Positions 320 through 2,054 of a DNA stretch of 64,000 bases are shown here, piece after piece. The stretch comes from Escherichia coli (lineage in GTDB: Bacteria > Pseudomonadota > Gammaproteobacteria > Enterobacterales > Enterobacteriaceae). Location of the stretch: assembly GCF_003018255.1 (NCBI RefSeq), contig NZ_CP027440.1; one strand, 5' to 3'. The translations under genes were made by a program, and so were the position numbers. Below the pieces are notes generated by a model. That model ran no database searches, was not told where the DNA came from, and saw only the letters and a list, made by a program, of their open reading frames with translations. Position 1 is the first letter of the stretch, and each line of letters starts with the position of its first letter.

Positions 320-601
320 TAAGAATTTCTTTACTGACAGGGTGAGCAGGGCGCTTTTATCCTGTCAGTTCGTTTTACTCACTTTATCCGGTGTATATAC
401 CCTTCTCGACAGTTCTTTAACGCCGCTATACCCCTCACAGAGCGCTTTTACAGTGACGTTGACTTGTGACCTGTAAAGTACAATATCGCTGTGTGTAGGC
501 GTTATACATCGCCGTAAATATGATGCAGGCAAATGCTGTCGGTTTATGGGAAAGTTGCTTTGGGTAAAAAAAACGGCCCCAGAAGGGATAATGCCAGTCA
601 G

Positions 602-1947
602 TTAAGCAACTGACTGGCTCTTTTTCGGGGCTGTGGGGTATTTCCAGGGCCTCTCCTTTACCACTCTCGGGAAGGCACTTTCCCTTCTTGTCGGTAATTT
701 CACAAGTTGTCCCATACTTGCAAGATCGCGCATCAGCTCCGGTATACGTCCCGGTGAAGCGCCCTGCAATGTCATCAGCATTCTCATCACCATTCCGCAT
801 GATTCTGAGAAACTCAGTTGATTCGGCCAGTAACCTTTCAGATGTTCCGCCATTTTAATCATCTGATATCTCACCAGATTATAAGCCAGTAAGACACCCC
901 ACAGCTCTTGCTCCACAAGCTCCGGCTTTTTACTTCTCAGCGTCAGCCTGCTCAGTTGCATCGTCTGTTTTATCTCCCTGTATCCCAGTTCGATTTCCCA
1001 GCGATGACTGTACAGATCCGCCATTTCTCCTCCGGGGAAGCGCATGGCGTCCGTCATCGACGTCAGCAGATGGCAGACTTTTCCTTTGCGCGTCACGGTC
1101 AGCAGGCGGGCTGTCACTTCATTTCCCAGTCCCGGCCACTTTTTTCGTGCCTGCGGGCTGATGTTCAGCTTCACCAGATGCTCGCCTTTACCCAGTTTTC
1201 TGATCTCTTCATATTGCGCTCCCTTTCTGAGAGGGATCATCCAGTGGCGGTGTTCTCCCGCCTGGCTCCAGGCATTTAACAGTCCTGGTGAGTAATAACC
1301 TTTATCCATTAACGTCAGAGTGTTATCGTCGGTTTGTTCTATAAGTTGCTCAGCAAGCTCATTTTCGCTGTTCTTCATCGTGCCGAAGGCTGCAGTCGTC
1401 AGCAGATGGCTGGTCAGTTCCATCTGGCAGACCATTTTGACCTGCGGGTAGAGCGCCGGGTTCCCGGCATGTGTCTGGCGGGGGAAGGCTGCATTGTTCT
1501 CTGGTGTATCCGGTGTGCGCCAGAACACACCATCGATGGCCAGCAGGGTCAGGCCGCACCAGTGCGGATGCGGCGTGGCGTTATGTCAGAGCTGCGCTGT
1601 TTTCGTGAACACGCGGCGGACAGCCTCAATTCCCAGACGCTGGCGGGTCTGAATAACGGCACTGGGGCAACGAAGGGGCGATTGCCCGGCAGCATGATGT
1701 CCAGGCGATTCACAATCTGGTGAAGAGGTTCTTTACGCTCAAGCGCCATGCCAACAATACACCAGACCATCATTTCGAGGGGAAGACGGCGCTTGCGTAG
1801 CGTTACAGTACCTGATTCGGCAAGGCAACGAGAGATGAGTTCGGGGTCGAGGTAATCCCCCAGAGAAGTCAGTGGGTTACGCAGAGAATCGTAACGGGAT
1901 ACCAGATCAAGAGCCTGTCCAATGTGCATAAAAAAATCCGGAAACAA
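602..1947 (-). pseudogene. insZ: IS4-family transposase, disrupted (N-terminal part 1947-1549 and remainder 1528-602 in different frames)
   Basis: Two adjacent minus-strand ORFs (132 aa + 308 aa) that together resemble one IS4-type DDE transposase; K-12 carries a transposase pseudogene between tdk and adhE. Confidence 0.6.
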
Positions 1948-2054
1948 GTGAGCGTTTCCGGATTCTTACACAGCCACTGGATCGGTCAACTGATCCTTAA
2001 CTGATCGGCATTACCCCAGAAGGGGCCGTTTATGTTGCCAGACAGCGCTACTGA

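Follow-up and report, generated by a model that had tools for sequence, protein, structure and literature searches.

A full-length IS4 copy with a disrupted transposase gene between tdk and adhE of Escherichia coli, in the tip of the predicted adhE terminator hairpin

Which element separates tdk from adhE in this Escherichia coli DNA, is it still intact, and what does its presence say about the backbone that carries it? In the window, by which we mean the whole stretch of 64,000 nucleotides of contig NZ_CP027440.1 that was analysed, tdk ends at position 319 (plus strand, stop codon 317-319); adhE lies on the minus strand at 2055-4730, with its stop codon at 2055-2057. Between them the list of open reading frames (ORFs) holds two on the minus strand, 1549-1947 and 602-1528, which the initial annotation had read as a likely inactive IS4-family transposase remnant at 420-1990, marking a K-12-like backbone. 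Pfam matches on both frames bear out the transposase and its family: ORF 1549-1947 matches Nterm_IS4 (PF13006; E 2e-23, 82.7 bits, cut-off 25) and ORF 602-1528 matches DDE_Tnp_1 (PF01609; E 3e-29, 102.8 bits, cut-off 23). The analysis makes us almost certain that 589-2013 is a full-length, non-autonomous copy of IS4 which entered the tip of the adhE terminator hairpin and has since decayed.

Alignment with K-12 IS4 and with the intact copy that occupies this site in IAI39 delimits a complete IS4 of 1425 bp at 589-2013 on the minus strand, its transposase gene reading from the 2013 end towards 589. In the 64 kb, the 18-bp pattern TAATGCCRRTCAGTTAAG has exactly two matches, at 589-606 (plus strand) and 1996-2013 (minus strand), with 0.00 expected by chance. 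These are the terminal inverted repeats, both identical to those of K-12 IS4: the transposase-proximal repeat at 1996-2013, recovered in a search with no mismatch allowed, reads TAATGCCGATCAGTTAAG on the minus strand, and the transposase-distal repeat at 589-606 reads TAATGCCAGTCAGTTAAG on the plus strand and agrees with the proximal one at 16 of 18 positions. Direct reading of the flanks revealed a 12-bp target-site duplication, with the left copy CCCCAGAAGGGA at 577-588 and the right copy CCCCAGAAGGGG at 2014-2025, identical at 11 of 12 bases. The search for inverted repeats and a target duplication that had been proposed as a check thus found both. With both ends and the duplication present the element is complete and not a truncated remnant, and at 1425 bp as against 1426 bp the word remnant is inexact. 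The span of 420-1990 is likewise to be replaced, as positions 420-588 are 169 bp of ordinary tdk-adhE intergenic DNA outside the element and the last 23 bp of the element had been cut off; an Rfam scan of 1-2400 with E up to 1 returned no match, and hence no known RNA in 420-588. The element had rightly been placed near adhE, but the distance of about 100 bp from the 3' end of the gene does not hold, the adhE stop codon lying 41 bp from the end of IS4 and about 125 bp from the transposase ATG.

IS4, a DDE cut-and-paste element, is the founding member of the IS4 family. The K-12 copy (insG, b4278; NC_000913 4502090-4503515) has 1426 bp, over which the window copy departs from the consensus of K-12 IS4 and the intact IAI39 copy by 15 substitutions and a 1-bp deletion, and its nucleotide identity to each of the two is 98.9%. 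Being nearly identical to the reference IS4, both ends included, it is an iso-form of IS4. Once the deletion is repaired in silico, the translation reaches 301 bits against the NCBIfam model NF033592 'IS4 family transposase' (cut-off 115). In the IS4 family the catalytic triad is spaced D(60-110)D(100-150)E (De Palmenaer, Siguier & Mahillon 2008, PMC2266710), and in InsG as in the repaired translation it reads D133-(75)-D209-(104)-E314, within the range of the family, where the two catalytic D residues are assigned by motif context (AIDG, MDKGY) and not from a structure; the window retains the codons for all three residues. The Y-(2)-R-(3)-E-(6)-K signature of region C1, which is also typical of the family (PMC2266710), is intact in ORF 602-1528 (residues 307-321). 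Members of the IS4 subgroup measure 1400-1650 bp, with ends of the form -AATR--------WTW---- and direct repeats of 10-13 bp (PMC2266710); the window copy has 1425 bp, ends TAATGCCAGTCAGTTAAG and TAATGCCGATCAGTTAAG that fit the pattern, and a direct repeat of 12 bp (11/12 identical). The family is further defined by a transposase encoded in a single ORF without frameshift (PMC2266710), which the intact copies of K-12, IAI39 and JNE23-011 possess and the window copy does not. Its broken frame is that of a pseudogene copy of a family member and is not evidence against membership. IS10 and IS50 (Tn10 and Tn5), the family members whose mechanism has been studied, resemble IS4 in the DDE/YREK signature and in a target duplication of about one helical turn (PMC2266710), but they belong to other subgroups, with ends CT/CW instead of -AATR-, 9-bp duplications and a much weaker target specificity. 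The literature searched yielded no biochemistry of IS4 itself.

The disrupted transposase gene, a homologue of insG, extends over 602-1929 on the minus strand, from the ATG at 1929-1927 to the stop codon at 604-602, and two lesions interrupt it. At 1664-1667 (minus strand) the alignments show a G4 run that is G5 in intact copies, a 1-bp deletion that shifts the frame at codons A88/P89 and cuts the N-terminal DNA-binding domain off from the catalytic domain, so that the reported split into two frames is confirmed. In addition to it, T1586, which is C in the intact copies, converts TGG to TGA at 1586-1588 (minus strand) and gives an in-frame nonsense codon, W115*. The codons of the three catalytic residues all lie downstream of both lesions. 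Insertion of the missing G in silico restores a frame of 442 codons, which differs from K-12 InsG by W115* and 13 missense changes; compared with K-12 insG, 15 nucleotide differences lie in codons whose amino acid is changed and 3 in synonymous ones, a ratio consistent with relaxed selection. The 308-codon ORF 602-1528 is still open and keeps the second D, the E and the YREK signature, with the N-terminal domain and the first catalytic D missing. Taken together, the deletion and W115* support the initial suspicion of inactivity: the transposase is very probably inactive, and the sequence predicts that none is made from this copy. We propose that the resident copy decayed after its insertion, the deletion in the G5 run splitting the DNA-binding from the catalytic domain and the TGG-to-TGA change truncating the protein at residue 115, which would leave the copy unable to make transposase. 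As its ends are intact, the transposase of another IS4 copy could in principle mobilise it.

The same site is occupied by IS4 in IAI39, CE10, UTI89, S88 and APEC O1, which we take to be phylogroup F and B2 strains. The tdk-adhE copies of IAI39, JNE23-011, Rb-50, UTI89 and DETEC-S792 have the insertion site, orientation and target duplication of the window copy (UTI89 with G at the last position of the left copy of the duplication, IAI39 with A in both copies). As to their frames, IAI39 carries the canonical sequence and is intact, JNE23-011 is an intact variant, and Rb-50, UTI89 and DETEC-S792 are pseudogenes. The 1-bp deletion at 1664-1667 is present in DETEC-S792 and Rb-50 and absent from JNE23-011, UTI89, IAI39 and K-12 IS4, and among the copies compared only DETEC-S792 shares the nonsense codon. 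DETEC-S792 (NZ_CP116067, an independent assembly) is 99.9% identical to the window over 1,801 bp, with a single difference inside the element (T1329); it carries both lesions, and its copy is labelled 'frameshifted; internal stop' by PGAP. A second place in this genome also gave a match. Within a group of about 35 records with at least 99% identity over the region, DETEC-S792 is the one other genome with the frameshift plus nonsense allele. JNE23-011 has a 99.5%-identical allele that carries most of the variant substitutions together with an intact ORF of 448 codons, and UTI89 and its relatives have an IS4 with a 281-bp internal deletion. Five further missense changes are specific to the allele group of the window. 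In a MAFFT alignment the window-specific substitutions are concentrated in about 500 bp (1161-1663) and not evenly spread, a clustering that suggests recombination among IS4 alleles and not uniform clock-like decay. The IS4 alleles at the tdk-adhE site form a mosaic.

Without the element and one copy of the duplication, the reconstructed empty site reads AAAAAAAACGGCCCCAGAAGGGGCCGTTTAT; about 2,206 complete E. coli genomes, strain 042 among them, have this sequence uninterrupted. On the adhE strand it folds as RNA into a 10-bp stem with a 4-nt loop, followed by U8 (-21 kcal/mol, z -4.25), and this hairpin with its U-tract behind adhE is the predicted intrinsic (rho-independent) terminator of the gene. 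We propose that IS4 integrated into the tip of the hairpin, duplicating 12 bp, and that the insertion deprived the adhE terminator of its U-tract and outer stem. According to the fold of the empty site, the distal half of the split terminator, namely the outer 3' stem bases and the U8 tract, now lies at 566-576 (minus strand), and reading and folding place the rest of the adhE-proximal 3' UTR with the 5' half of the terminator stem (CCG/TTTAT) at 2026-2054 (minus strand). When the sequence is folded as it stands after the insertion, adhE retains a stem of only 4-5 bp and no U-tract.

The element itself may provide a substitute. Some 45 bp into the element, immediately ahead of the transposase ATG, RNA folding identified a strong hairpin followed by U7 at 1930-1968 on the minus strand (-22.8 kcal/mol, z -6.15, 0/200 shuffles as stable), and adhE transcripts would end at this structure, some 65-70 nt further on than before. 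The hairpin is predicted both to stop read-through from adhE, which should then not drive expression of the transposase, and to hide the ribosome-binding region. IS10 and IS50 are protected from outside transcription, and the end-proximal structure of IS4 resembles such protection, which would block or silence read-through. A consensus scan also found a promoter-like site with 9/12 matches (TTGACC, 16 nt, TG-AAGAAT) at 1962-1989 on the minus strand, its -10 element overlapping the 5' arm of the hairpin. We offer this site only as a suggestion for a candidate promoter of the element itself; promoter-like sites in 1-2400 do not exceed in number what shuffled sequence leads one to expect. The overlap of promoter and hairpin would agree with the classical scheme, where translation is possible only from the transcript that the element itself initiates. 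At the other end, a scan and fold showed that the distal repeat and adjacent bases form an 11-pair hairpin followed by a T-run at 593-618 (plus strand); the fragment folds at -24.2 kcal/mol on the opposite strand, and the structure may act in a terminator-like manner on transcripts entering from the tdk side.

Could the gene be intact after all, or function in its split form? The deletion sits in a G5 homopolymer, a typical site of indel errors, and the 99.5%-identical JNE23-011 allele at the same site is open throughout, so one might put the frameshift and the stop codon down to errors in sequencing or assembly. However, the nonsense change is a substitution outside the homopolymer, the five additional missense changes are peculiar to the allele group of the window, and the independently assembled DETEC-S792 has the deletion and T1586, with Rb-50 also having the deletion. 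Recurrence of the lesions in a separate assembly makes an artefact unlikely, and we consider an intact transposase very improbable. A functional split gene, whether through programmed frameshifting as in IS1 and IS3, through a truncated inhibitor as Inh of Tn5, or through the supply of a terminator to adhE, is in our judgement scarcely credible. It could draw on the open 308-codon ORF, on the retention of the element at this site in many genomes and on the internal hairpin with U7, which could replace the lost adhE terminator. Against it, transposases of the family are encoded in one ORF with no frameshifting (PMC2266710), the C-terminal ORF has neither the first catalytic D nor a convincing start context, and the 15:3 ratio of nonsynonymous to synonymous differences, combined with several independent disruptive alleles, indicates relaxed selection. 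Programmed frameshifting in particular was rejected, since intact copies are continuous and, in the restored frame, the TGA comes after the shift.

The claim of a K-12-like backbone raises a further alternative, that the element is the K-12 insZ/ISZ pseudogene inherited with that backbone. At the adhE hairpin K-12 MG1655 indeed carries an IS4-subgroup element, ISZ, with the annotated pseudogene insZ (b4573), and ISZ shares with the window IS4 the intergenic terminator hairpin, the orientation, similar ends (CAATGCC...) and an adhE-side terminal 34 bp that is near-identical (97%). The similarity stops there: blastn of ISZ against IS4 detected none beyond the terminal 34 bp, the interior not being alignable, and tblastn of InsG against the ISZ translation gave 31% identity over 226 aa. 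ISZ has a 10-bp target duplication in place of 12 bp, and its first base is C where that of IS4 is T. It also has full-length relatives of its own, such as a 1406-bp copy on plasmid pEC17CM7_2, next to which the K-12 ISZ, annotated as 980 bp and here about 989 bp, is internally deleted by about 420 bp. A chimeric origin of the right end of ISZ from a piece of IS4 was considered and rejected, because the end of the full-length plasmid ISZ-like copy is similar to IS4 as well (30/35 identical). As for the backbone, divergence of the window from K-12 amounts to about 1.5% between adhE and ompW and to about 5% on the tdk-side flank. The window has no IS5U where K-12 carries one between ychE and oppA, and it diverges completely from K-12 after ompW, where a prophage begins. 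The comparison with K-12 that had been recommended therefore uncovers a different element at the same hairpin, its transposase 31% identical, and the K-12-like marker is to be withdrawn. The alignments already refute inheritance of insZ, to which we assign next to no probability. A decayed but full-length IS4 in the adhE terminator hairpin thus remains the preferred reading.

The tdk-adhE site was further surveyed in 5,426 complete E. coli genomes, of which about 21-29% have IS4, 35% ISZ and 41% an empty site. IS4 was counted in 1,128 genomes by the junction query, a lower bound as the tdk-side flank is diverged in UTI89-type strains, and in 1,568 by whole-region coverage; ISZ was counted in about 1,885 by the junction query and in 1933 by whole-region coverage, and the empty site in about 2,206. 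The whole-region counts (1568 + 1933 + 2206) exceed 5,426, as ISZ-like copies elsewhere are included and short remnants can be counted as empty. As a side observation, the same adhE terminator has been used repeatedly by two distantly related elements of the IS4 subgroup.

IS4 is said to be highly site-specific and to prefer a pseudo-palindromic target AAA-N20-TTT, a description attributed to Mayaux et al. in 1984 and to ISfinder. The window site reads AAA-AACGG-CCCCAGAAGGGG-CCG-TTT and fits this rule. K-12 IS4 lies at another chromosomal site, in the yjgZ-nanX region, unlike the window copy in the adhE terminator, but the two share the 12-bp target duplication and the geometry AAA-N5-TSD12-N3-TTT. 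To this pair we added other insertions: a 30-nt end of IS4 was found at 67 places in one-genome-per-species contigs from many Enterobacterales, and the sites with at least 40 nt of flank, with the window and K-12 IS4 sites added, made a consensus set of 61, a few of them orthologous or duplicated across genomes. Outside the element end, A accounts for 79-87% of the bases at positions -20 to -18 and G for 70-79% at positions -4 and -1, with a C-rich stretch from -12 to -9 and an AT-rich one from -8 to -5. Of the 61 sites, 54 carry AAA, as against 15% of random control positions. When duplicates were not filtered out, the scan gave 63 flanks, and in 57% of these the duplicated bases include a perfect 4-bp hairpin tip, as against 13% of controls. 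The left half of AAA-N20-TTT is thus confirmed on 61 sites, the right half being seen only in the few complete copies. Given the common geometry of the window and K-12 sites and the consensus, the location is as the target preference of IS4 predicts, and an A-run, GC hairpin and T-run would be the type of target that IS4 prefers. A literature search returned nothing relevant on IS4 with adhE or tdk, nor on 'AAAN20TTT'. The clear terminator-like consensus of IS4 targets across Enterobacterales is a mildly interesting by-product of the analysis.

For the locus itself there is little new biology, as a textbook element in a predictable place, a pseudogene already annotated by standard pipelines, is already known. 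The use of the analysis lies in a corrected annotation, an element at 589-2013 with two named lesions, and in the caution that an IS4-family gene found between tdk and adhE is no mark of K-12, since the site has three states. The presence of IS4 there may serve as a lineage marker, IS4 having been the state seen in the recognised B2/F strains, and its terminator targeting is a tidy illustration of target choice, although as a pattern it probably only restates the descriptions by ISfinder and De Palmenaer et al. We give an even chance to a broader reading, that the adhE terminator is a natural hot spot hit independently by IS4 and ISZ and that the subgroup recognises terminator-like hairpins. 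If so, the three states of the site in E. coli (empty, IS4, ISZ) would have been left by independent hits of the two elements, and the recognised hairpins, with A- and T-runs on either side, would resemble bidirectional terminators. In the light of the 61-site consensus, the old AAA-N20-TTT rule would become one of terminator targeting. IS4 and ISZ would then owe their near-identical terminal 34 bp to a shared module for end and target recognition, and such a site would be a safe haven, in which no gene is disrupted and to which the element brings its own replacement terminator.

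The adhE terminator hairpin that holds the IS4 copy in the window is occupied in K-12 (MG1655) as well, at the point equivalent to 588/2014, by ISZ, a different element of the IS4 subgroup (positions 1418-2406 of the K-12 tdk-adhE locus, L001, corresponding to about 1294417-1295405 of NC_000913). Although the transposase of ISZ is only 31% identical to InsG, the K-12 IS4 transposase, the element matches the IS4 end at 97% identity over its terminal 34 bp. The GenBank annotation of ISZ begins 9 bp too far in, within the true left inverted repeat (CAATGCCGT|TCACTTAAG).

At the same site as in the window, strain JNE23-011 (NZ_AP045067) carries an intact variant IS4 transposase of 448 codons (WP_024196293.1; 603-1949 of its tdk-adhE locus, L009), which differs from K-12 InsG at 9 positions, including L215P, L223Q, D250E, K256N and T257I. 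The intact frame together with these differences points to a diverged and possibly functional IS4 allele resident at tdk-adhE in this strain. Yet another mobile element at the locus is IS200C (IS200/IS605 family), inserted in the intergenic region of some genomes whose terminator site is otherwise empty (NZ_CP069957, H30; NZ_CM183924, H32). Strains vary in the final base of the target duplication (window 588 and 2025): the two copies read A/G in the window, IAI39 has A/A and UTI89 has G/G. This polymorphism could be due to mutation or to conversion between both copies. With A at the position equivalent to 2025, the remaining terminator stem of IAI39 is also weaker.

The search of genome contigs, one genome per species, for the 30-nt IS4 end (loci L010-L076) yielded exact matches, often in multiple copies, in Kosakonia oryziphila, Budvicia diplopodorum, Silvania, Buttiauxella, Yersinia thracica, Rosenbergiella and others. 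Loci of E. coli and Shigella were missing from the matches, though the exact sequence is present in K-12. The left-end flanks of these loci show a striking terminator-like motif in which a GC hairpin comes after an A-run. The IS4 flank is identical between contigs labelled 'Chryseobacterium sp. 18061' (L073) and 'Citrobacter sp. 18056' (L033) from the same project, which suggests contamination. A 1403-bp contig of an Oscillospiraceae MAG (L076) consists of nothing but IS4, suggesting mis-binning.

Beyond the IS4 site, IS5U (insH21), located between ychE and oppA in K-12, is absent at about 6100 in the window, where the K-12 alignment simply skips it. A lambdoid prophage starts directly after ompW (19431-20069) and extends from 20115 to about 52400 and beyond, with a lambda-type integrase (20115-21245, minus strand), an exonuclease-like gene (21536-24007, minus strand) and tRNA-Met and tRNA-Arg genes (36984-37145). 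K-12 is without any insert at this position, and DETEC-S792 (NZ_CP116067) carries a related prophage, but one whose matching patches are only 77-96% identical to that of the window. In positions 1-606, comprising the tdk 3' end and the tdk-side intergenic region, 32 of the 606 positions (about 5%) differ from K-12, compared with about 1.5% divergence over the following 18 kb. Positions 1-606 are a locally divergent patch adjoining an insertion hot spot.
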